Positions 19,425 to 31,351 of a DNA stretch of 64,000 nt are shown piece by piece. Both the position numbers and the translations under genes were made by a program. The notes below the pieces were generated by a model that saw only the letters and a list, made by a program, of their open reading frames with translations, ran no database searches and was not told the DNA's origin. Positions within the stretch are counted from its first letter, which is position 1. Every line of letters starts with the position of its first letter. This DNA comes from Candidatus Bathyarchaeota archaeon (GTDB taxonomy: Archaea; Thermoproteota; Bathyarchaeia; Bathyarchaeales; Bathycorpusculaceae), in NCBI GenBank assembly GCA_963827165.1, contig CAWGZR010000009.1, positions 64,001 to 128,000 of the forward strand, written 5' to 3'.

Positions 19425-19820
19425 ATGGAAAGGAAAAAAATGTTAGAAACAACAAGTGTCATCAAGAACAAAGTAATAATTGAAAACAATTTAATGGCCG
19501 AAGATCAAACAGCAGAAAGAAACGTTAAGACCTTTCTGGATATCGTAATAATGTCATTGCTGAATGGCAAAGCAACATATGGCTACAAAATCATTGCGAT
19601 AGTACACAAAGAGTTTGGCATTTTGCTCAGTCCAGCCACGCTTTACCCATTGCTTCACACATTAGAAGATGAGCAGTTAGTAGAATCCGATTCGGCCGAT
19701 GGGAAAACCTTCTACACATTAACTTTGAAAGGAAAGGCAACGTTTAGGAAGAAATTCATAGCTTATAATTTGTCTACACAAATAATGTGCTCCTTTGTAA
19801 AGAAATGTGGCTCGATCTGA
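19425..19820 (+). CDS. PadR-family wHTH transcriptional regulator
   Basis: TYGYKII...LSPATLYPLLHTLE...YTLTLKG. Confidence 0.88.
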   Translation: MERKKMLETTSVIKNKVIIENNLMAEDQTAERNVKTFLDIVIMSLLNGKATYGYKIIAIVHKEFGILLSPATLYPLLHTLEDEQLVESDSADGKTFYTLTLKGKATFRKKFIAYNLSTQIMCSFVKKCGSI

Positions 19821-19841: not shown

Positions 19842-20459
19842 TCAGATTGCGGGCATCAAAACCTCCTCTGATTGCCCAAGCTCTCTTACCACTTCTTCAA
19901 TTTTGCTCTTTAGAGCATCTATTTTCACGGCGCGAATTAATGCTATCTCAGTAACTAATTGATCTTTTATTAAAACCTGAAGTACGCCGCTTCCATCTTC
20001 TACGGTTTCTTCCGTAATAGTTGACAGACCTTTTATTTTGCATATAGATGTTTCAAACAATAGTTCGGTTGGCTTTTTTCTGAATAGAAAAAATCTTTTG
20101 TTCGTTACATAAAGATATCCTGGTCTCCATGTTCCAGAGACTGATTTTTTTTGGCAAAAATAAGAGGCAAACGTCTTTAGAATAATTTTTTCATTTTCAA
20201 ACAATGGAGCTTCTTCTGAACTTTCCGCCAAAACGGTTCTTCTGATCTGTTCATCCCAAGTTCCCATCATCCCGTAATCTATCATTGTAGTCAACCCCGC
20301 GATTGCAGCTTTTAAGTTGATGCCAATTAATGGAACGCCTGAAACTGAAATTATGATATCTGCATTAAGAATTATACCTTTAACCAAGATTCTGTCAATG
20401 AGGTCAACTAGAGCGCCATCCCTTGAGGGTTGCAAGTTAATCTTCTCCGTAATCAGCAT
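19842..20459 (-). CDS. gvpM: Gas vesicle protein GvpM-like fused to C-terminal PH/GRAM-like domain
   Basis: LVDLIDRILVKG...PLIGINLKAAIAGLTTMIDYG..WD (GvpA-family, GvpM type); GYLYVTNKRFFLF PH/GRAM-like motif; true start likely TTG 20435. Confidence 0.75.
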   Translation of the reverse strand: MLITEKINLQPSRDGALVDLIDRILVKGIILNADIIISVSGVPLIGINLKAAIAGLTTMIDYGMMGTWDEQIRRTVLAESSEEAPLFENEKIILKTFASYFCQKKSVSGTWRPGYLYVTNKRFFLFRKKPTELLFETSICKIKGLSTITEETVEDGSGVLQVLIKDQLVTEIALIRAVKIDALKSKIEEVVRELGQSEEVLMPAI

Positions 20460-22362
20460 CTAACAAAATCAACATTTCCCTCAAATTAAGGAACTCCAAG
20501 TTCACGTGGTCATGCGATGCTTGTTCAATTCGTTTTACGGAGGCTTCTAGTTCTTCCTTTTTCTCCTTTGGCAGCTTTTTGCCCAATCGACCTTCCGCGG
20601 CGGAAAGCAGCATTCGGCTCTGGTTTACTCTTTTTATCTTCGTCCTTGTACCTTCCATTAACTTGAGAAGTTGAACGGTCGAAATTTCGATCGTTGTGAG
20701 ATCCTTGTTATTCACATTCTTATTTAAATTGCGTAACGCCAAGTCCAGTTTTCTTTTATCTTTACAAGGGATTCTGCCAGCTTCCTCTTGAAGAAATTTT
20801 TTCACAGCCTGGATAGTTCCCGTTACACAATTTTGGGTTTCGATAAACCCCTTTACTTTCTCATCTGACTCGCTGAACCTAGTCGCTTCGATAATTCTCT
20901 TCATAATTTCATCTTCTGAAAGATTCTTTGTTTCCGCAATCTTGATAGCTTCTATTTTTCCTGTTTCTAAAATTTCTGCGGAGACAGTCAGGATACCGTT
21001 AGAATCTATTTTAAAGGCAACATCCACTTCTTGTTCGTGTTTAGCTCCTTGGGGGATACCTTCAAGCTTGAACATGCCTACAGTGGTGTTATCTTTGGCC
21101 ATTTCGCGTTCTCCTTGCAAGACATGAATTATCATCGACGTCTGGAAATCCTCTTCCGTTGCAAAAGTCATGTTTTCCTCTGTTGGAATTGCACTGTTTC
21201 TTTTAATTAGTCGGGTAAACAGCCCACCAGTTGTCTCCACACCTAAAGATAACGGAGTCACATCTAACAATAACAATTCTTTTATTTCGCCATTTAAGAC
21301 ACAGGCTTCAACACTCGCTCCAGTAGCGACTATTCCCATCGGGTCTATACCTAATTCAGGTTGCGTTTCAAAGTAACTGCCAAAATATTTTCTGACGATA
21401 GGTATTCTAGTTGGTCCTCCGACTAAAATTAGCTTATCAATATCCTCACGGTTTAAGCCTGAATCACTCAAAGATTGCTCTATTGGACCTTGCAGCCTAT
21501 CGAGCTGAGGTTTGATAAGTTCTTCAAGCTTATCACGTGTCAAAGCTATTCTCAGATTTGCGCCAGAGCACTTTGCCTTTACGCCGGTATCTATTGATGT
21601 TGAGACTTCTGTTGAAAGGTGAATCTTCGCCATTTCACCTGCATCTCTAAGTTTGCTTAGTCTCCTCTTATCATTCTCCAAGCAAATTCCGTACTTCTCT
21701 TCAATTTCTTCAACAAGATAGTCTAAAATTTCGTCATCCATGTCCTTACCGCCCAAATGAACATCGCCGCTGGTAGAAAGAACATGGAATAGCCCGTTGT
21801 TTATGTCCAGAATGGTAACGTCAAAGGTTCCGGCGCCCAAATCAAGCACTGCGATCTTAAGATTTTTTCCTAATTTGGCCATACCATAAGCTAACGAAGC
21901 TGCTGTGGGTTCGCTGACTATCCTCAAGACTTCAAAACCGGCTATTTCCCCGGCTTCTTTTGTTGCATTTCGTTGATTGTTGTTGAAGTAAGCGGGCGCC
22001 GAAATTACTGCTTTATCTATTTTCTCGCCCAAATAGGTTTCAGCGTCTTTTTTTATCTTCTTCAATATAAAAGCTGATATTTGTTGAGGGTTATATGACT
22101 GACCATTTATGTTCTCACAATGATCTGTACCGATTTTTCTTTTAATCCACTTGACAGTTCGATCAGGATAATCGTAAGAATATCTCTTTGCATCTTTTCC
22201 CACTAGAACTTCACCGTCATCTTTGAAAGCAACAATTGAAGGTACCATTTTCCCGTAAGCGGTTGGACCTTCTGCGGCTGGAACTATCCTTATTTTTCCT
22301 TCTTTCATCACAGCACCTGCAGAGTTGGAGGTCCCAAGATCGATTCCAATCGTTCGTCTCAT
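20437..22362 (-). CDS. dnaK: Hsp70/DnaK family chaperone (divergent paralogue inside gvp cluster)
   Basis: GIDLGTSNS, PAYF, EPTAA, DLGAGTFD, LVGGPTRIP, LLLDVTPLSLG linker, QGERE; start re-called at MRRTIG. Confidence 0.92.
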   Translation of the reverse strand: MRRTIGIDLGTSNSAGAVMKEGKIRIVPAAEGPTAYGKMVPSIVAFKDDGEVLVGKDAKRYSYDYPDRTVKWIKRKIGTDHCENINGQSYNPQQISAFILKKIKKDAETYLGEKIDKAVISAPAYFNNNQRNATKEAGEIAGFEVLRIVSEPTAASLAYGMAKLGKNLKIAVLDLGAGTFDVTILDINNGLFHVLSTSGDVHLGGKDMDDEILDYLVEEIEEKYGICLENDKRRLSKLRDAGEMAKIHLSTEVSTSIDTGVKAKCSGANLRIALTRDKLEELIKPQLDRLQGPIEQSLSDSGLNREDIDKLILVGGPTRIPIVRKYFGSYFETQPELGIDPMGIVATGASVEACVLNGEIKELLLLDVTPLSLGVETTGGLFTRLIKRNSAIPTEENMTFATEEDFQTSMIIHVLQGEREMAKDNTTVGMFKLEGIPQGAKHEQEVDVAFKIDSNGILTVSAEILETGKIEAIKIAETKNLSEDEIMKRIIEATRFSESDEKVKGFIETQNCVTGTIQAVKKFLQEEAGRIPCKDKRKLDLALRNLNKNVNNKDLTTIEISTVQLLKLMEGTRTKIKRVNQSRMLLSAAEGRLGKKLPKEKKEELEASVKRIEQASHDHVNLEFLNLREMLILLDADYGED

Positions 22363-22381
22363 CGAAATTCCCCCAAGATTG

Positions 22382-23362
22382 TTAGTTAATTCTTTCCTCG
22401 ATGAGAAAATTCTGTTTAACTTGGCTTTCCTCAAGTGAACAAAGATAGTGTTCACAGTATCTCGTTAGGAGAGATTGGGCTTCTCTAATTTTCTTGAACT
22501 TATTTTCACAAGATGGTTTATTTCGATGAAGGTCAGGATGATATTTTCGTACCAGAATGTTATATGCTGAATTAATCTCGGATATGCTTACTTCTTGACC
22601 TAATCCTAGGGTTTTTCTTGCATCGTCTAACTCGTCAAAGTTCATTTTTTTTACGCAGATTTTGGTAAAATTGTAAGCTGGCAAGTGACCTACTGAGAGA
22701 AACTCAAGCCTGCCGGCGTATTTTTCTTCCAACTTGTTTAATCTTTCGTTAAAATCTTGCTCGCGGTTTTTATCAATTAGAAAAGACATATTCGTTAGTG
22801 TATCTTGATCTTCGTTTTTGTTCTCTTCAGAATCCAACAAAACGGTTCCAAGTGAATGTTCTATGTCGGTTATGTATTCAAGTTTCTTTTCATCAAGGGC
22901 TTCCTTCACTTTTTTGCCTAGCTCAACTCTGAGGGTTTGATCATTATTTTTCTTAGATGCTTCGACCAGTTCTTTGATATGTTTGTTTTCGTTCAGGACG
23001 TATGCAAGGATGGTTTTGTTCCATGATATTTTAACGTTAATTTGTAATTTGTTGTCAACTTTTTCTAAAGTTTTCTTAAATTGCATTTTGCCTCGTTTTA
23101 GAATATTCTTTATTTCTTTTTCGTTTTTAGCCACTAATCCGAAACCCATTGGAATTAACGAGTATGGATCCATGATTTTACATAATACCTTTTCATGTGT
23201 TTTCGCTTCTTCGATGCCAATTCTGCAGTTGTCAAAAACGTCACTAACTACAGCACCCAGCTCTCCAAATTGGACAATGTATGTTTCGCCATTTCCAACT
23301 CCGATGTTTCCGAACGTTTTCTTGTTTTCAGAATCTATAATTCCGTAAATGTATTTTGCCAA
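22382..23362 (-). CDS. GvpL/GvpF family protein fused to C-terminal J-domain
   Basis: YIYGII, HEKVL, IPMGFG, GHLPAYNF (GvpF/L); then ARKTLGL...EINSAY...KYHPD...KFKKIREAQSLL (J-domain, HPD). Confidence 0.88.
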   Translation of the reverse strand: MAKYIYGIIDSENKKTFGNIGVGNGETYIVQFGELGAVVSDVFDNCRIGIEEAKTHEKVLCKIMDPYSLIPMGFGLVAKNEKEIKNILKRGKMQFKKTLEKVDNKLQINVKISWNKTILAYVLNENKHIKELVEASKKNNDQTLRVELGKKVKEALDEKKLEYITDIEHSLGTVLLDSEENKNEDQDTLTNMSFLIDKNREQDFNERLNKLEEKYAGRLEFLSVGHLPAYNFTKICVKKMNFDELDDARKTLGLGQEVSISEINSAYNILVRKYHPDLHRNKPSCENKFKKIREAQSLLTRYCEHYLCSLEESQVKQNFLIEERIN

Positions 23363-23367
23363 ATTTT

Positions 23368-24174
23368 TCAGTTCTCCTTAATTTTTGACTCGTTCATTTG
23401 TCCTGAGAAAGAATATGGCGGCCAAGGTCCAGTGAATCTAACGTCGAAGCCGTCATTCACAAACTTGGCTAATATGTTTCCTAATTCCTCAATTTTTCCC
23501 GTGTAAGCAAGACAGCTCATGTTAAGAATCATTTGTTTGTCTTTCCACTTTTCGGGAACTTCTTTGTTTGTTGAAGAAAGCTTTACCTCATCGACCAGAT
23601 TCTCGATTTGAACGCAAATATTTTTTGTGAATTTGTTTATGACAAGTTGTTTTTCAACCTGTATTTTTTGGTCTAGCTTTTTCCCCAGAAGGTAGGCTGC
23701 GCCGCCGCATGATTTTTTCAATTTCTCTTTTAAAGACTGTATTTCTTGATTTTCATTTAGTAAATCATCAAGATTTTGGTTCTTAAGGAAGATCTGAATT
23801 CCATATTCGGCTTTTCCTTCCAATCTGGCGAACAACTTTTTGAGCTGAAAGTACTGCTCAGATAACCACTTTCCGAGAGTTTCGTCGTTGCCTTTGAAGA
23901 TTGTGTCGAATGTCAACGGAATAACCGTTCCATATTCCTCTGTTGCCAAGTCAATTACATATTGATGCGCCAAAATCCACTCACCCGCTTTTTCTTTCGA
24001 TTTAGTTTCGTACGGTTTTGCTTTACACGAGTGAATGACCAGCCCCACGTCTTGAAAAGCTACAACTCTTACTTCATTGTCTTCAACGCCTATTGGCCGA
24101 AAATCATTTGCGTTTCCATTATTGATAATACAATAGACGTATTTTCCTTCTTCGAAACTATTTTCTTGAATCAT
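23368..24174 (-). CDS. gvpL: Gas vesicle protein GvpL (GvpL/GvpF family)
   Basis: GKYVYCI, HQYVID, TVIPLTFDTIF, GAAYLL, RFTGPWPPYSF; follows gvpK. Confidence 0.88.
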   Translation of the reverse strand: MIQENSFEEGKYVYCIINNGNANDFRPIGVEDNEVRVVAFQDVGLVIHSCKAKPYETKSKEKAGEWILAHQYVIDLATEEYGTVIPLTFDTIFKGNDETLGKWLSEQYFQLKKLFARLEGKAEYGIQIFLKNQNLDDLLNENQEIQSLKEKLKKSCGGAAYLLGKKLDQKIQVEKQLVINKFTKNICVQIENLVDEVKLSSTNKEVPEKWKDKQMILNMSCLAYTGKIEELGNILAKFVNDGFDVRFTGPWPPYSFSGQMNESKIKEN

Positions 24175-24488
24175 TGGGTAACACCTTTATTGTCTATGTT
24201 TTCAGGATCAGTCATTATATTGATGGTATCTTCCACCATTCGGTCGAGGTCAGTCCTCAAACATTTAACAACAGATTGAAGACTGTTTTCTTCCTTGATG
24301 TGCTCAAGCGCATGATCAAGTTCCATCAACCCATTGCCCAATCTTTCAACTTCGTACTCGTCTAATCTGCCTGACTCCATTCTTCTCACAGCTTCTTTTT
24401 CAAGAACTTCCTGGATAACTTCAACTAAAGTGACAATAACTCCGAGAAGACCGGTTTTCAGGTCTTGTTCATTAATTTCTATTGGCAT
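24171..24488 (-). CDS. gvpK: Gas vesicle protein GvpK
   Basis: GLLGVIVTLVEVIQEVLEKEAVRRMESGRL...ERLG. Confidence 0.92.
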   Translation of the reverse strand: MPIEINEQDLKTGLLGVIVTLVEVIQEVLEKEAVRRMESGRLDEYEVERLGNGLMELDHALEHIKEENSLQSVVKCLRTDLDRMVEDTINIMTDPENIDNKGVTQ

Positions 24489-25014
24489 GTGATTCCTCCT
24501 TCGTGCTTAGTTTTACCTCCAAGACACTGTTGTGAAGGTTTTTTTCAATTTTGCCAATGACTGAGCAGGGCAAATGAACTTCTTTGTAATATTCTTTCCC
24601 AGATATTATTAGACAAGACTCAGTCAATCTCAATTGTACAAATTTCTCCGTCGAAGGGAGCGCGGCAATGACCCTTACTAGATTTTCCTCTTCTATTACA
24701 TCTATAAGCTCCTCTGCACGAACTTTGCTGGCGAAATCTTCATCTACCCACCAGCTGAACATGATTTTTTGACCAGTTAACCGATCTATCTTCGACTGCT
24801 GGAAAGAAAGGATTGGTTTACCAATGATCTCTTTGGCAGTTGGGTTGATGATTTCTCTTATGATCAGAAGAACTTCCATATCTGAGGATGCGCACAGCAG
24901 ATTCGATAAATCTCTTAGCTCTGCATGACTCTCGTTTAATAGGAACATTGTCATCTTTCTGCTTTTCTCGTCCAAAACATTAAGGAGCAAATCAAGTTTG
25001 GTCAAAGCGCTCAA
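24472..25014 (-). CDS. Hsp20/alpha-crystallin-like (GvpH-like) protein with N-terminal helical (HTH-like) domain
   Basis: C-terminal IDVIEEENLVRVIAALP...YYKEVHLP...HNSVLEVKL. Confidence 0.7.
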   Translation of the reverse strand: MSALTKLDLLLNVLDEKSRKMTMFLLNESHAELRDLSNLLCASSDMEVLLIIREIINPTAKEIIGKPILSFQQSKIDRLTGQKIMFSWWVDEDFASKVRAEELIDVIEEENLVRVIAALPSTEKFVQLRLTESCLIISGKEYYKEVHLPCSVIGKIEKNLHNSVLEVKLSTKEESHANRN

Positions 25015-25397
25015 TTCTGTACCCCCAATTTAACTCCAACTTTCATAGCTTTTTCTTTCTGCGATCTGGCACTTTCCCATCCGCACCAAGGACATGCAAA
25101 GTTCAATAATTCGTTTCTGTTAACGTCTTTTCCACATTGAGGGCAATCTTCTTTTTCGATACTAACGTCTTTCCAAGCGATTGTTTCCAGATTGGTTCCC
25201 GATGGAAATTCTAGCCCATATTTTGCTGCGGTCTCAAATGAAGCGAGTGCAGCTCTGATTTTTATTCCCAGCAGTTCCACTCCAGCAACGCTGATTGCAA
25301 TATCTGCGTTAATTACCAATCCCTTATCCAAGATTCTATCGATTGCTTCGGCTAAACCCGAATTCTCTTTTTCTGGTCTTAATGCTAAATTCGTCAT
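25011..25397 (-). CDS. gvpJ: Gas vesicle protein GvpJ with C-terminal zinc ribbon
   Basis: LAEAIDRILDKGLVINADI...RAALASFETAAKYGLEFP; CPQC...CPWC. Confidence 0.9.
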   Translation of the reverse strand: MTNLALRPEKENSGLAEAIDRILDKGLVINADIAISVAGVELLGIKIRAALASFETAAKYGLEFPSGTNLETIAWKDVSIEKEDCPQCGKDVNRNELLNFACPWCGWESARSQKEKAMKVGVKLGVQN

Positions 25398-25415: not shown

Positions 25416-25760
25416 TTAGTATTGAATTCCGCCACACCAAGGACACTCTCTTTCATGTTCTTCCCCAGTGGATTTTCTACCGCACTTTCGACAGATCTGC
25501 AACATTGACATGGCTTGCCATGCTTGCGCCTCTAGATTAGTATTTGCGGGAAATTTCAAACCCAGCTTTTTTGCTGTCTCAAAGGAAGAAAGAATTATGC
25601 GCGACTTAGTGTCTAAAAGACTGATGTCACTAATTCGAATCTTCGCAGCCGCGTCTATTATGACACCTTTGTCCATTATCACATCTAATAGACTGTTCAA
25701 GGTGGCCTCTCGTGATTTACTGAATACCAAAAAAGACCCCCCTTGCACGTTGATAGACAT
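25416..25760 (-). CDS. Divergent GvpJ paralogue with zinc ribbon
   Basis: LLDVIMDKGVIIDA...SSFETAKKLGLKFP; CRKC...CPWC; start uncertain. Confidence 0.8.
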   Translation of the reverse strand: MSINVQGGSFLVFSKSREATLNSLLDVIMDKGVIIDAAAKIRISDISLLDTKSRIILSSFETAKKLGLKFPANTNLEAQAWQAMSMLQICRKCGRKSTGEEHERECPWCGGIQY

Positions 25761-25881: not shown

Positions 25882-26172
25882 TTAGCCTAAAATGTTAATT
25901 CTTTGACTTGGACGAACTATGTTTAACCTTTTATTTGTCATCCGTTGGTGACAAAGTGCATTGTTGCGTTCTTCATATTCTTCCTGAGTTTTCTCGCCAA
26001 GTTCATAGAGGAGTCTATTTTCTCTAAGTTCATTGTTAATTCTTTGCTGATTTTCATTAACTCTACCTTCATCGGCATAATCCATTATAGTCTCCATTAG
26101 CCAAACCATGTCAAATGGTGGCACAGAAAGACCCAACATTTCCAGGAAAAGATCATCTATAAAAAAGGGCAT
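25882..26172 (-). CDS. gvpG: Gas vesicle protein GvpG
   Basis: FFIDDLF..PF, ELRENRLLYELGE...EEYEER; follows gvpF. Confidence 0.85.
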   Translation of the reverse strand: MPFFIDDLFLEMLGLSVPPFDMVWLMETIMDYADEGRVNENQQRINNELRENRLLYELGEKTQEEYEERNNALCHQRMTNKRLNIVRPSQRINILG

Positions 26173-26176
26173 TCGA

Positions 26177-26836
26177 CTACACCCGTTTCTTCTTTACTTC
26201 TACACCTTCTGCACCTATCTTTATGTACACAAAGTTATGTGGTGCCCAGGGTCCACTATATAGAAACTTTAGCGTTGAATATTTGGTCTGAAGTCTTTCA
26301 ACTTCCTCTGAGAATGAACCTATCAATTCTTTCCCGACCAAAAAAGACGCGTTTAAAACAAGTCTTTCGCTGAACAAGCCACATGCGACTGCTTCCTTGG
26401 ACTTAGATTTCAGAGATTCTAATATTTCTGAAACCATTGTTTCTTTCTGTTCTGCATCTACAAAAGCAGTTTTGTCGGTTCTAACAATCTTTACCCCGAG
26501 TTCAACCATATTTTCGACTACTTTTAGAGATTCTAAAGCAGGGCTATAGGCCTTCTTAATCAAGCGTTTCAAGATTATGTCATTTTTTATTGTTGTTCCA
26601 AATTCAGTCGGGACAACTGAGTATTCATTCATTATTTCTTGAACAACTTTCTCATGTTTCTTTGTATTATTTTCGGTCAACTCGTAGTCTGTCATCGGAG
26701 AATCGCTGACAACTGCCGCAATGCCGCCGCAGGGAATGGTAAAAACTTCCTTGTCATTCAAGCCTATCTTGCCGAAGTTTCTTTCTTCAGAGCATTTTAT
26801 TACGCAGTAAAAATATTTTCCTTGTTCCTTATCCAT
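26177..26836 (-). CDS. gvpF: Gas vesicle protein GvpF
   Basis: GKYFYCV, AVVSD, HEKVVQ, VPTEFG, LNASFLV, YSGPWAPHNFV. Confidence 0.9.
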   Translation of the reverse strand: MDKEQGKYFYCVIKCSEERNFGKIGLNDKEVFTIPCGGIAAVVSDSPMTDYELTENNTKKHEKVVQEIMNEYSVVPTEFGTTIKNDIILKRLIKKAYSPALESLKVVENMVELGVKIVRTDKTAFVDAEQKETMVSEILESLKSKSKEAVACGLFSERLVLNASFLVGKELIGSFSEEVERLQTKYSTLKFLYSGPWAPHNFVYIKIGAEGVEVKKKRV

Positions 26837-26847
26837 TTGACAAACCT

Positions 26848-27669
26848 CTAGATTTCAAGTTCTTGTTTCAGGTAATGGTTCAGAACAGAATGAGCTTGAA
26901 TATGTTCATGAACCAAGTTTCTTATTCTTGGTTTGGCATCTTCAACCGGGCCATAAACTATTTCTTTGCCTGATTTTTTGAATGCCAGTAACCCTTTTTG
27001 CTCCAGCGAATGAAGCAACGGATATATTGTTCCTGGACTAAGTAGCACGTTAAACTTCAAATGTATGGTTCCTATTATTTCAGTTCCACACATCATGTCC
27101 TTCTGAAGAATGGCTAAGATTACATTTTCTAAGTTATCCTTTACTATTTTTTCAACAGACTTGCCCGACAATTCAGATTCATTGAAGAAGTCTCCAGACA
27201 ATATTGTCAAATCACTTGTCGTCAAACGAAGCTCATTATGATACGTAGCTAACTGCTTGATTTTTTCAAAGTTGAATTTTGTAAGGTCATAAGTACATAA
27301 GCAGTTTAAGTTGCTGCCCCGGCATAATTCGTTTAGATAACCCTCTCTTTTTTCAATTTCAGCACATTTTTCGTTAGCTAATGACCCCGCGTCAATTATA
27401 AGCTGCAAATCATTGTCTTCGCTGTTGAGTTCGTAAAGTTCGCTTGAATTAATAATCTTCAACTGAATGCTTAAATGATTGAACTCTTCCGTTAGCAATG
27501 AGCTGTCGTCTCCAGTAACATAAATTATTCTTTGGTTTGCTCTGGAAGGAATCAAGAATGCGTTTTGGATCGAATACTTATCTACATTTGGAGCATAAAG
27601 ATGCAGGGCATGTTTTGAATTAGTTCCGCAGATTTTCAGGGATTCCATAGGCAGATTTTTTGTGTACAT
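26848..27669 (-). CDS. MEDS-like sensor domain fused to PadR/GvpE-like wHTH regulator
   Basis: N-terminal HALHLY...IIYVT...LIIDAG...LCTYD (MEDS-like); C-terminal MCGTEII...LSPGTIYPLLHSLEQKGL. Confidence 0.75.
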   Translation of the reverse strand: MYTKNLPMESLKICGTNSKHALHLYAPNVDKYSIQNAFLIPSRANQRIIYVTGDDSSLLTEEFNHLSIQLKIINSSELYELNSEDNDLQLIIDAGSLANEKCAEIEKREGYLNELCRGSNLNCLCTYDLTKFNFEKIKQLATYHNELRLTTSDLTILSGDFFNESELSGKSVEKIVKDNLENVILAILQKDMMCGTEIIGTIHLKFNVLLSPGTIYPLLHSLEQKGLLAFKKSGKEIVYGPVEDAKPRIRNLVHEHIQAHSVLNHYLKQELEI

Positions 27670-27689: not shown

Positions 27690-27971
27690 TTACTCCTCTA
27701 TCTCAGACGCAATTCGATCACTGCGTTTTCTGACCATTTTCTGTGTCCAGCCAATTACTTTCCCTTCTTCATCTAGTCTTATTACATATCTTGCGAGAAG
27801 ATCTTGTGTGTCCGGTATGGATTTTCTCTGCAATACTTCGACGGTGACTGCCCATTCGCCATTTTTCTCTTTGATATCTACAATGGTTTCAGGGTTTTTG
27901 GAGAGAAACCTTTTTGCCGCGTCAAGAGCAACTTCTGTAATCTTAAAAAGCGAAAGCTTATTTTGCGTCAT
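27690..27971 (-). CDS. gvpO: Gas vesicle protein GvpO
   Basis: GEWAVTVEVLQRKSIPDTQDLLARYVIRLDEEG. Confidence 0.92.
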   Translation of the reverse strand: MTQNKLSLFKITEVALDAAKRFLSKNPETIVDIKEKNGEWAVTVEVLQRKSIPDTQDLLARYVIRLDEEGKVIGWTQKMVRKRSDRIASEIEE

Positions 27972-29536: not shown

Positions 29537-29911
29537 TCATCCATAGAACTGTTTCGTGTATTCGCGTTGTTCTTTCACTTGTTTGGCTATGCTAGCTTGC
29601 ATGGCAGCAATACCGGATACCATTTCAGCGACGCCTGAACTAAGGTTGTTGGAACCTTCTGCATGCATTTTGATTGCGGCCTTTTGGAAATTGGCGCTGG
29701 TTTTTTGAATGCTTTTTTGCATGTCGCGAACGCCTGAATTAAGGTTGCTGATACCTGATGCAAGCATCTCGTTGGCGGCTTCTTGGAAATTGACGGCGGT
29801 TTGCTTGTAAAGCGTTCTTTTGCCATTTACGCTATTCGGGTTTGGTTTTGTTTCTGTTTTCGTTGGTTCAGCTGTTGTCACTGTTTGTTTTTTCGGTTTT
29901 TGTTTAGACAT
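29537..29911 (-). CDS. gvpC: GvpC-like protein with two 33-aa repeats
   Basis: TAVNFQEAANEMLASGISNLNSGVRDMQKSIQK / TSANFQKAAIKMHAEGSNNLSSGVAEMVSGIAA; position between gvpA and gvpN; ends FYG. Confidence 0.65.
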   Translation of the reverse strand: MSKQKPKKQTVTTAEPTKTETKPNPNSVNGKRTLYKQTAVNFQEAANEMLASGISNLNSGVRDMQKSIQKTSANFQKAAIKMHAEGSNNLSSGVAEMVSGIAAMQASIAKQVKEQREYTKQFYG

Positions 29912-29949: not shown

Positions 29950-30177
29950 TTAGGAGGCTGGAACAGGAGCGGCTATTGCTGCTTGTTCGACCTTTGTGAT
30001 CTCTTCCGCGTAGTGTAGGAATGTATCTACTGAAGCGACTACCACTCTAGCTTCGATGGTGAGAATTTCAATTCCAACCAGTGAAGCTCTTGCCCAAGCA
30101 TCGACGACTATTCCTTTATCCATTATGCGATCAATTACTTCTGCCAAACTACCTGAATCTGGACTTTGTTGCACCAT
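29950..30177 (-). CDS. gvpA: Major gas vesicle structural protein GvpA (copy 2)
   Basis: [51 protein letters not shown]. Confidence 0.97.
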
Positions 30178-30256: not shown

Positions 30257-30484
30257 TTAGGAGGCTGGAACAGGAGCGGCTATTGCTGCTTGTTCGACCT
30301 TTGTGATCTCTTCCGCGTAGTGTAGGAATGTATCTACTGAAGCGACTACCACTCTAGCTTCGATGGTGAGAATTTCAATTCCAACCAGTGAAGCTCTTGC
30401 CCAAGCATCGACGACTATTCCTTTATCCATTATGCGATCAATTACTTCTGCCAAACTACCTGAATCTGGACTTTGTTGCACCAT
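30257..30484 (-). CDS. gvpA: Major gas vesicle structural protein GvpA (copy 1)
   Basis: Identical to copy 2; GAGGTGA SD. Confidence 0.97.
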
Positions 30485-30763: not shown

Positions 30764-31351
30764 TTGATGTGGCTGATCTGTCGAATGACTTTCAGAAAAG
30801 GCATAACCAAATTACTGGTCCGAGGCATAGACGGTGCTGGATGGGTTTTTTGCCCGATGATAAAAAGCATAAAGAACGACAAAGTATCTCTACAATGCTG
30901 CAACAAATGTACCCAATTTATTCGTTTCGAACACAACTCCTTTCACCAGATAGCCGCCACTGGAAGACCAAGATTTATTCCGAATCATGTGGGTCGATCT
31001 CATTTCAGCAGGCCTACATCAAAACGAAAATGTTTCCCAATTTCCACAGTGCCGAGGCAGTATCCATCGTCAATTAGTTTTAGAGGAGAAAAGCAGCCAA
31101 TTGTAGACGTCTTTGAAGAGGAAGATAGCGTAATAATTTTAGCGGAATTACCCGGGATTGAAGAGAAAGACATAGACCTGCAAATAGAGGAAAACTTTGT
31201 AACAATTATTGCAGAAAACGCAACTAAGAAATATTTAGAAAAGAGAAAACTTCCAACACGAATCACTGGAGATCCGGTGAAATTCATTTACAGAAACAAT
31301 ATATTGCAAGCAAAACTGAAAAAATCTGTAAAAAATTCGCCAAATGCCTGA
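30764..31351 (+). CDS. Hsp20/alpha-crystallin domain protein with Cys-rich N-terminus
   Basis: PIVDVFEEEDSVIILAELPGIEEKDI...YRNNILQAKL; N-terminal CP..CCNKC; divergent from gvpA. Confidence 0.8.
   Translation: MMWLICRMTFRKGITKLLVRGIDGAGWVFCPMIKSIKNDKVSLQCCNKCTQFIRFEHNSFHQIAATGRPRFIPNHVGRSHFSRPTSKRKCFPISTVPRQYPSSISFRGEKQPIVDVFEEEDSVIILAELPGIEEKDIDLQIEENFVTIIAENATKKYLEKRKLPTRITGDPVKFIYRNNILQAKLKKSVKNSPNA

Follow-up and report, generated by a model that had tools for sequence, protein, structure and literature searches.

Does an Hsp70 gene that lies inside a gas-vesicle (gvp) operon, directly behind a gas-vesicle protein gene ending in a J-domain, belong to the machinery that builds gas vesicles? 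The question is raised by a stretch of 64,000 nucleotides (nt) from a Candidatus Bathyarchaeota archaeon (assembly GCA_963827165.1), here called the window, which corresponds to C9:64001-128000 in a genome of 3.13 Mb and 14 contigs and which carries a gvp cluster at C9:84-94 kb. The two genes concerned encode a GvpL/GvpF protein fused to a J-domain (the fusion) and the gvp-linked Hsp70 that follows it. On the evidence given below, they probably form a specialized, self-contained J-protein/Hsp70 module of the gvp operon that aids the assembly or hand-over of gas-vesicle proteins, a reading to which we assign a probability of about 0.7. The organisms found here to carry the module are uncultured.

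Organization of the gene pair

The pair lies near the end of the gvp operon and comprises the following features, given in window positions.

22382-23362, minus strand: GvpL/GvpF::J-domain fusion, 326 amino acids, TTG start; GvpF/L part at residues ~3-233, J-domain at ~241-305, then a conserved tail
22463-22615, minus strand: J-domain core (Pfam match, residues 250-300), with HPD codons at 22532-22540 and KYHPD codons at 22532-22546
22363-22381, minus strand: spacer of 19 nt from the fusion stop codon to the Hsp70 ATG, containing a GGGGG ribosome-binding-like run
20437-22362, minus strand: gvp-linked Hsp70, 641 amino acids, with nucleotide-binding domain, LLLDVTPLS linker, substrate-binding beta domain, helical lid, and C-terminal tail

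The longest Hsp70 frame (20437-22455, minus strand), which has its GTG start at 22455, would extend into the fusion gene. The ATG at 22362, giving 641 amino acids, is the likely start codon, because orthologue N termini align there (13 begin M-x-R-T-[IMV]-G-I-D-L-G at this position) and a GGGGG Shine-Dalgarno-like run can be read 7 nt upstream of it; the Hsp70 of genome G162 begins LKRT at the same point, with a likely TTG start. With this start, the 19-nt spacer is right. The spacings around the pair are +5 nt from GvpL/F paralogue 2 to the fusion, +19 nt from the fusion to the Hsp70, and -23 nt from the Hsp70 to the gene for a GvpM-PH protein.

The first-pass annotation of this DNA had described a third GvpF/L paralogue ending in a J-domain with an intact HPD motif (KYHPD), followed 19 nt downstream by a divergent DnaK. 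The paralogue count held, with PF06386 genes at 26177-26836, 23368-24174, and 22382-23362; the J-domain ending was borne out by a PF00226 match and by KYHPD read from 22532-22546; and the distance was reproduced by the stop-to-ATG gap at 22363-22381.

The fusion protein

The N-terminal part of the fusion matched the Pfam family GvpL_GvpF (PF06386; E value of 1.5e-49, residues 3-233), and the C-terminal part matched DnaJ (PF00226; E value of 1.2e-11, 44.9 bits against a cut-off of 27.8, residues 250-300). An AlphaFold2 model was computed from a 20-sequence alignment; its residues 1-81 were poor (predicted local distance difference test score, pLDDT, of <50), and the linker at 230-235 was of low confidence. 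In this model the J region (residues ~241-305) had a pLDDT of 85-91 and formed helices at 242-252, 260-274, and 283-305, with the HPD motif (H275-P276-D277) in the loop between the last two, as in the J-domain fold. Foldseek searches with the C-terminal part returned many J-domains, for example, 4j7z, 6rzy, and the DnaK-bound 5nro_B (TMt of 0.80), and those with the N-terminal part returned the GvpF structures 6l5d_B (E value of 1.8e-9) and 4qsg (E value of 4.3e-9). The model and the structural matches together predict that the C terminus folds as a J-domain, on which the initial proposal depended.

Both Pfam domains were present in all of the 120 best of 196 homologues, and the HPD motif was intact in 119 of these 120, the remaining one having HPN; HPD was invariant in 20/20 aligned homologues and in 5/5 divergent fusions. 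The tail of the fusion contains a conserved Y-C-x-x-Y motif. A zinc site in this tail (YCEHYLCS) was considered but rejected for the family as a whole, since its His and second Cys are not kept in G162, L045, L046, and L047, and only Y-C-x-x-Y is invariant.

A profile of three distant fusion members retrieved 718 clusters at an E value of ≤1e-10, with both domains in 120/120 of those listed. The sources among the listed clusters included the archaeal Halobacteriota, Methanophagales, and Methanobacterium and the bacterial Patescibacteria, Syntrophales, Desulfobacteraceae, Desulfobacterales, Zixibacteria, and Dehalococcoidia. Because it comprises so many clusters from these archaeal and bacterial sources, the fusion family is old and widespread, and it is already in databases under generic annotation, as "GvpL/GvpF family gas vesicle protein," "DnaJ-domain-containing protein," or "hypothetical." The Protein Atlas, used as a lead only, gave 13 clusters with both Pfam domains, mostly labelled "Bacteria," and a search with the G162 fusion gave seven matches, all of them close relatives or plain GvpF/L proteins. 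Stand-alone open reading frames (ORFs) of 95 to 123 amino acids were also seen in Halobacteriota (G237:C1:1365324-1365581, G253:C135:4296-4535, and G253:C59:16-252); these match only fusion residues ~239-324, that is, the J-domain and tail, and may be split forms of the fusion.

By its domain content, the fusion is a class-C-type J-domain protein, with the GvpF/L fold as its putative targeting or client-binding part. The non-J parts of J-domain proteins choose clients or places for Hsp70.

The gvp-linked Hsp70 and the housekeeping DnaK

In total, Hsp70 genes and J-domains each occurred twice in the genome and GrpE once. A housekeeping grpE-dnaK-dnaJ operon was located at C9:242102 to ~245900, outside the window and ~155 kb from the gvp cluster, and the gvp-linked Hsp70 is therefore a second copy and not the housekeeping copy of the genome. 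The first-pass annotation had also remarked that no grpE or canonical dnaJ lies near the pair, and this was correct: the sole GrpE match of the genome and its sole J-domain besides that of the fusion belong to this distant operon.

The gvp-linked Hsp70 matched PF00012 over residues 5-573 (E value of 4.2e-172, 573.9 bits), and its best PDB matches were the DnaK proteins of Geobacillus (2v7y) and Escherichia coli. In alignments to 2v7y and 2kho, the equivalents of E. coli K70, R167, E171, T199, and D201 and the LLLDVTPLS linker were all present, and they were invariant in 17 clade members; judged by these residues, the protein looks catalytically competent.

The description of this protein as a divergent DnaK was upheld. 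Its scores fell below the NCBIfam equivalog cut-offs for DnaK (630.4 versus 648 for NF001413 and 625.8 versus 822.55 for TIGR02350) and for HscA (466.4 versus 708.55 for TIGR01991), whereas the housekeeping DnaK of the genome, with which it shares 46% identity, scored 850.4 and 845.6 bits, above both DnaK cut-offs. Among other members of the clade, the L029 protein was below both DnaK cut-offs, and those of L017 and L039 passed NF001413 only. Eighteen positions were conserved among the gvp-linked proteins yet unlike those of ten Bathyarchaeia housekeeping DnaKs. The equivalent of E. coli N170, which lies beside R167 and which we take to be part of the J-domain contact surface of DnaK, was Ser in 16/18 gvp-type Hsp70s and Asn in 10/10 housekeeping proteins; the V436 equivalent was Met in 16/18 gvp-type Hsp70s, and a Lys-to-Glu change in the beta domain was found in 18/18. 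At the substrate-arch equivalents, which presumably bear on substrate specificity, the Bathyarchaeia type had T/S/A for M404 and E for A429. The last ~70 residues form a clade-specific, helical-looking tail, versus a Gly/Pro/Gln-rich tail in the housekeeping copy. A complex prediction for the Hsp70 (17-row alignment) with fusion residues 236-326 (20-row alignment) scored 0.01 in both runs and counts neither way.

Linkage and inheritance of the pair

The Hsp70 gene followed the fusion gene directly in 20/20 loci examined, which came from two archaeal phyla and one metagenome contig. These were 15/15 Bathyarchaeia loci from GTDB genomes (among which L009 has its Hsp70 in two ORFs, and L013 and L016 have an Hsp70 cut by the contig end); G162, from another family of the class, where identities were only 35% for the fusion and 48% for the Hsp70; the metagenome contig L039; and 3/3 of the Halobacteriota genomes with a full-length fusion, which was present in 3/401 sampled. 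The co-occurrence of fusion architecture and adjacent Hsp70 that had been expected from the single locus is thus recurrent. A metagenome scan with the Hsp70 representative P0122 yielded two loci, L039 and L040, the latter at 33% identity. The pair precedes the GvpM-PH gene in eight Bathyarchaeia loci and in the window and follows it in six and therefore behaves as a two-gene cassette. The two are immediate neighbours in most of the related loci that have sequence on both sides.

An Hsp70 tree was built under LG+G4 from 59 sequences, a chosen subset comprising 28 of 150 listed representatives plus the locus sequences. In it, all 18 gvp-linked Hsp70s, together with P0121 and P0122 (the latter named as the DnaK of a Thermoplasmatota metagenome-assembled genome [MAG]), formed one clade with 100/100 support, to which neither the ten housekeeping DnaKs of Bathyarchaeia nor three other Hsp70s of Halobacteriota belonged, and a quick 104-row tree agreed. 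The phylogeny thus separates the gvp-linked Hsp70 from housekeeping dnaK, as had been anticipated. Its deeper branching lacks resolution and is compatible with duplication of an archaeal DnaK or with separate acquisition. A tree built from the fusion proteins contained the same groups as the Hsp70 tree, a congruence consistent with the two genes being inherited together.

These data bear on an explanation in which the J-domain serves mainly the housekeeping DnaK, while the adjacent Hsp70 plays a different, J-independent part. Conservation of R167 and of the linker in both paralogues would permit it, but the adjacency in 20/20 loci, the congruent trees, the Ser/Asn difference at the N170 equivalent, and a genome (G008, below) with no other Hsp70 all speak for a cognate pair and make that explanation decidedly improbable.

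Phyletic distribution and probable self-sufficiency

The distribution of the module was examined in 201 genomes of the class, a sample with only four positives, in which kin are not independent. The same 4/201 genomes (G000, G008, G187, and G162) held PF00741, the fusion, and an Hsp70 with ≥48% identity along its full length, and the gvp-type Hsp70 was found in 0/197 sampled class genomes without gvp genes; this coincidence of gvp genes, fusion, and Hsp70 type is what a private Hsp70 predicts. Some Hsp70 (43-54% identity) was found in 155/201 genomes and none in 46/201 at an E value of 1e-20, and Hsp70 is therefore dispensable in the class.

The housekeeping operon was present in G000, G187, and G162, and none was found in G008 or in G203, sister lineages from different assemblies. 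In G008 (the genome of L011; estimated 100% complete, 70 contigs), the gvp copy was the sole Hsp70 and the fusion the sole J-domain; in G203 (a BA2 MAG, the genome of L012), the gvp copy was likewise the sole Hsp70, the J-domain count covering G008 and not G203. No GrpE was found in either genome. Because G008 and G203 hold the pair as the only Hsp70 system found, their gene content suggests that the pair can do without GrpE and without a class-A DnaJ, and it is probably GrpE independent.

It could be argued from these two genomes that the pair is an ordinary proteostasis chaperone travelling on a mobile gvp island, the more so as the Hsp70 keeps all general DnaK features. We regard this as quite improbable: in all members seen (120/120 best homologues and 120/120 listed in the wider search), the J-domain is covalently joined to a gas-vesicle protein, the gvp-type Hsp70 was found in none of the 197 sampled class genomes without gvp genes, and in a class where 46 genomes have no Hsp70 at all, a general Hsp70 is dispensable. 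A base-composition signal for an island was also sought in the window and rejected, the guanine-plus-cytosine fraction being 0.37-0.41 in the gvp cluster versus 0.37-0.47 elsewhere, with no clear signal.

Several observations nevertheless weigh against a module dedicated to gas vesicles. The fusion and Hsp70 were found in 0/7 syntenic Methanothrix/Methanoperedens gvp loci, and in those Methanothrix and Methanoperedens genomes that were checked, the only Hsp70 gene lies elsewhere. Of the ~45 Halobacteriota genomes in the sample that have a GvpF/L match, ~42 lack the module. It was likewise found with 0/35 plasmid-borne GvpF/L genes, including records from Halobacterium, Streptomyces, Rhodococcus, Nostoc, and Octadecabacter; in a protein-mode search with the fusion, none of these 35 records had a J extension, the matches covering the GvpF/L part only and none extending past residue ~242. 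General proteostasis may be a further task of the pair in G008 and G203. In one Bathyarchaeota MAG (L009:11001-12924), the Hsp70 is split at about residue 216, which could reflect a pseudogene, a frameshift, or an assembly error. Action of the J-domain on the housekeeping DnaK as well is conceivable. Because most gvp clusters examined lack the fusion and Hsp70, the module is accessory and not a requirement for gas vesicles.

Taken with these points, a private Hsp70 dedicated to the gas-vesicle system, as the first-pass annotation had proposed, is well supported by comparative genomics, namely, by linkage, phyletic pattern, clade, and second copy. The word "private" needs qualification: in the genome of the window the gvp-linked Hsp70 is additional to the housekeeping DnaK, and in G008 and G203 private does not mean additional.

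Proposed mechanism and comparison with known systems

The pair is co-encoded and co-inherited with one pathway beside a housekeeping system, as specialized J-protein/Hsp70 pairs are. From sequence we infer that the J-domain would stimulate the ATPase of the neighbouring Hsp70 and that the client would be a GvpA-family protein, acted on during assembly, insertion, or disassembly. In a possible cycle, the GvpF/L part would dock on GvpA-family proteins (GvpA/J/M) or on the nucleation complex; the tethered J-domain would, through its HPD loop, trigger ATP hydrolysis in the co-translated Hsp70; the Hsp70 would clamp exposed hydrophobic segments; and shell subunits would be kept soluble and passed on, or assembly factors would be stripped and recycled. 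The cycle would probably run without need for GrpE. Published work on GvpF bears on the docking step: excerpts of PMC7688916 report that in Halobacterium GvpF was the sole GvpA partner found and that GvpL binds all other accessory Gvps, and an excerpt of PMC11445434 proposes that GvpF of Bacillus megaterium transiently chaperones GvpA2.

The resemblance to HscB-HscA that had been suggested for this locus fits, in that both are co-encoded specialized pairs within the operon of the pathway served. In each, a J-protein with a dedicated client-binding domain is encoded beside a specialized Hsp70 paralogue, a housekeeping DnaK is kept in addition, and the operon has no exchange factor. HscA-HscB works without an exchange factor. 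Unlike HscA, the gvp-linked Hsp70 reaches only 466 bits against the TIGR01991 cut-off of 708.55; unlike HscB, the fusion has a GvpF/L fold in place of the HscB helical domain as its targeting domain, and its J-domain is C-terminal; and a gas-vesicle protein presumably takes the place of IscU as the client. As in auxilin/GAK-Hsc70 and other class-C J-proteins, a C-terminal J-domain sits on a protein that binds a self-assembling lattice and would bring Hsp70 there, but the gvp fusion is prokaryotic, is unrelated to auxilin/GAK outside the J-domain, and has its own Hsp70 gene, and its role may be to build or to dismantle.

Among GvpF/GvpL proteins (PF06386; structures 4QSG and 6L5D), the N-terminal 235 residues of the fusion are those of a family member, and two plain paralogues are encoded next to it in the same gvp operon, whereas the characterized GvpF and GvpL proteins are without a J-domain. 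The gvp-linked Hsp70 shares its domain plan and catalytic residues with the DnaK of the DnaK-DnaJ-GrpE system but differs in scoring below the DnaK cut-offs, in forming a separate clade, in its own C-terminal tail, in its changed arch positions, and in having no GrpE in the operon.

Other genes of the gvp cluster

The operon occupies the minus strand between 30484 and 19842. Its other genes are listed in operon order, the fusion and Hsp70 falling between GvpL/F paralogue 2 and the GvpM-PH gene; the final entry is a neighbour.

29950-30177 and 30257-30484, minus strand: two gvpA genes with identical 75-amino-acid products
29537-29911, minus strand: heptad-repeat protein, 124 amino acids
27999-29060, minus strand: GvpN AAA+ ATPase
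27690-27971, minus strand: GvpO
26848-27669, minus strand: MEDS-like/PadR regulator
26177-26836, minus strand: GvpF paralogue 1, 219 amino acids (PF06386)
25882-26172, minus strand: GvpG (PF05120)
25011-25397 and 25416-25760, minus strand: two GvpJ/M-like genes with zinc-ribbon tails (PF00741; E values of 2.3e-16 and 2.7e-06)
24472-25014, minus strand: divergent Hsp20-like (GvpH-like) protein, 180 amino acids (NCBIfam NF041800, 42.7 bits, below the cut-off)
24171-24488, minus strand: GvpK (PF05121; E value of 5.9e-19)
23368-24174, minus strand: GvpL/F paralogue 2, 268 amino acids (PF06386; E value of 1.6e-56), 5 nt upstream of the fusion
19842-20459, minus strand: GvpM/GvpA-like domain fused to a PH/GRAM-like domain (GvpM-PH), 205 amino acids (Pfam Gas_vesicle, E value of 1.1e-12; bPH_3, weak; NCBIfam halo_gas_GvpM, 87 bits)
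19425-19820, plus strand: second PadR gene, convergent with the operon end

From gvpN onward, the intergenic gaps are ≤121 nt, mostly <30 nt or overlapping. The fusion sits in a cluster with gvpA, N, O, G, J, and K, the context of a GvpL/GvpF gene. Read sets holding 19842-24174 were soil and freshwater metagenome DNA runs only, and no RNA run was listed. The last gene of the operon, GvpM-PH, overlaps the Hsp70 stop by 23 nt; it is kept in Bathyarchaeia, Methanothrix, and Methanoperedens clusters, and its PH domain is duplicated in L039 and L047. The C-terminal tails of both GvpJ/M-like proteins are CxxC...CxxC zinc ribbons, and we know of none from model gvp clusters. The Methanothrix relative L026 has six gvpA copies in tandem.

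A second, weak Hsp20-like gene lies at 30764-31351 (plus strand), divergent from gvpA, and Methanothrix clusters have an Hsp20-like gene at the slot matching 24472-25014. The two Hsp20-like genes and the Hsp70 could make up a holdase/foldase set. They also bring into view a clean-up role, in which the GvpF/L part would recognize collapsed or mis-assembled, aggregate-like GvpA sheets and the Hsp70 would disaggregate or recycle shell protein, perhaps with the Hsp20-like proteins; small heat-shock proteins classically cooperate with Hsp70 on aggregates. We consider such a role unlikely, because the genes lie inside the biosynthetic operon, where they are probably co-translated with assembly factors, because the cluster has no ClpB-type disaggregase, and because GvpF/L proteins are described in excerpts of PMC7688916 as early assembly factors. 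Help in assembly or hand-over is the reading that these points favour.

The MEDS-like/PadR gene (26848-27669) and the PadR gene (19425-19820) are both kept in related Bathyarchaeia loci and are probably the cluster regulators, replacing the haloarchaeal GvpD/E. With regulator genes in and beside the operon, and with DnaK-based feedback loops known, the Hsp70 might titrate the MEDS/PadR regulator, as DnaK does sigma-32 or HspR, and so couple gvp expression to unassembled GvpA. This is hardly credible, since nothing in the analysis ties the regulator to the pair and since the pair is not adjacent to the regulator in L039, L045, and L046.

In related gvp clusters, a tandem ArsA/GET3-type ATPase gene was seen beside or within a few kilobases of the pair (L039:831-2750, L045:5309-7381, L046:3278-5311, and L047:10596-12560); none is present in the window. 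The L039 call is based on Pfam ArsA_ATPase (E value of 6e-162) and the other three on BLAST plus motif. Because GET3 proteins handle hydrophobic tail-anchored proteins, the ArsA/GET3-type ATPase is, by analogy, a possible further chaperone for GvpA-type proteins.

Novelty and significance

No description of a gvp-linked Hsp70 or of a GvpF/L-J fusion was found in the full-text literature, subscription journals and supplements being outside the reach of the search. In the matching passages of PMC3899966, PMC12848028, PMC4046663, PMC9258230, and PMC2405808, gas-vesicle and chaperone terms occur in unrelated places; the excerpt of PMC2405808, on the Psychromonas ingrahamii genome, lists DnaK-like genes 1232 and 1233 close to gvp genes 1248-1262 and makes no remark on it. 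Specialized J-protein/Hsp70 pairs are known as a type, and what is new is that one is attached to an organelle with no previously described ATP-dependent chaperone.

The finding addresses the question of how the very hydrophobic GvpA is kept soluble and inserted during vesicle growth. In current models, as far as an excerpt of PMC11445434 presents them, GvpF and GvpG are only suggested to act "like chaperones." A GvpF/L-J fusion beside its own Hsp70 across phyla is genomic evidence, read from sequence, that GvpF/L may be the client-selecting arm of an ATP-dependent chaperone. We advance more tentatively, and with the odds against it, the wider proposal that, across a broad range of uncultured archaea and bacteria, the biogenesis of gas vesicles includes an ATPase cycle of Hsp70 as an integral, energy-coupled step, in which GvpF/L::J at the site of shell addition would work with a private, GrpE-independent Hsp70 that delivers or releases the extremely hydrophobic GvpA-family proteins. 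Such a cycle, if real, would be the first ATP-driven chaperone step to be defined in the construction of gas vesicles. It would also supply a portable two-gene helper that could ease the proteotoxic stress by which, according to an excerpt of PMC12848028, heterologous gas-vesicle expression is limited. Bacteria are considered the source of archaeal Hsp70 (excerpt of PMC3564930), and to this history the pair adds an archaeal example of a specialized Hsp70/J-protein pair that is probably independent of an exchange factor.

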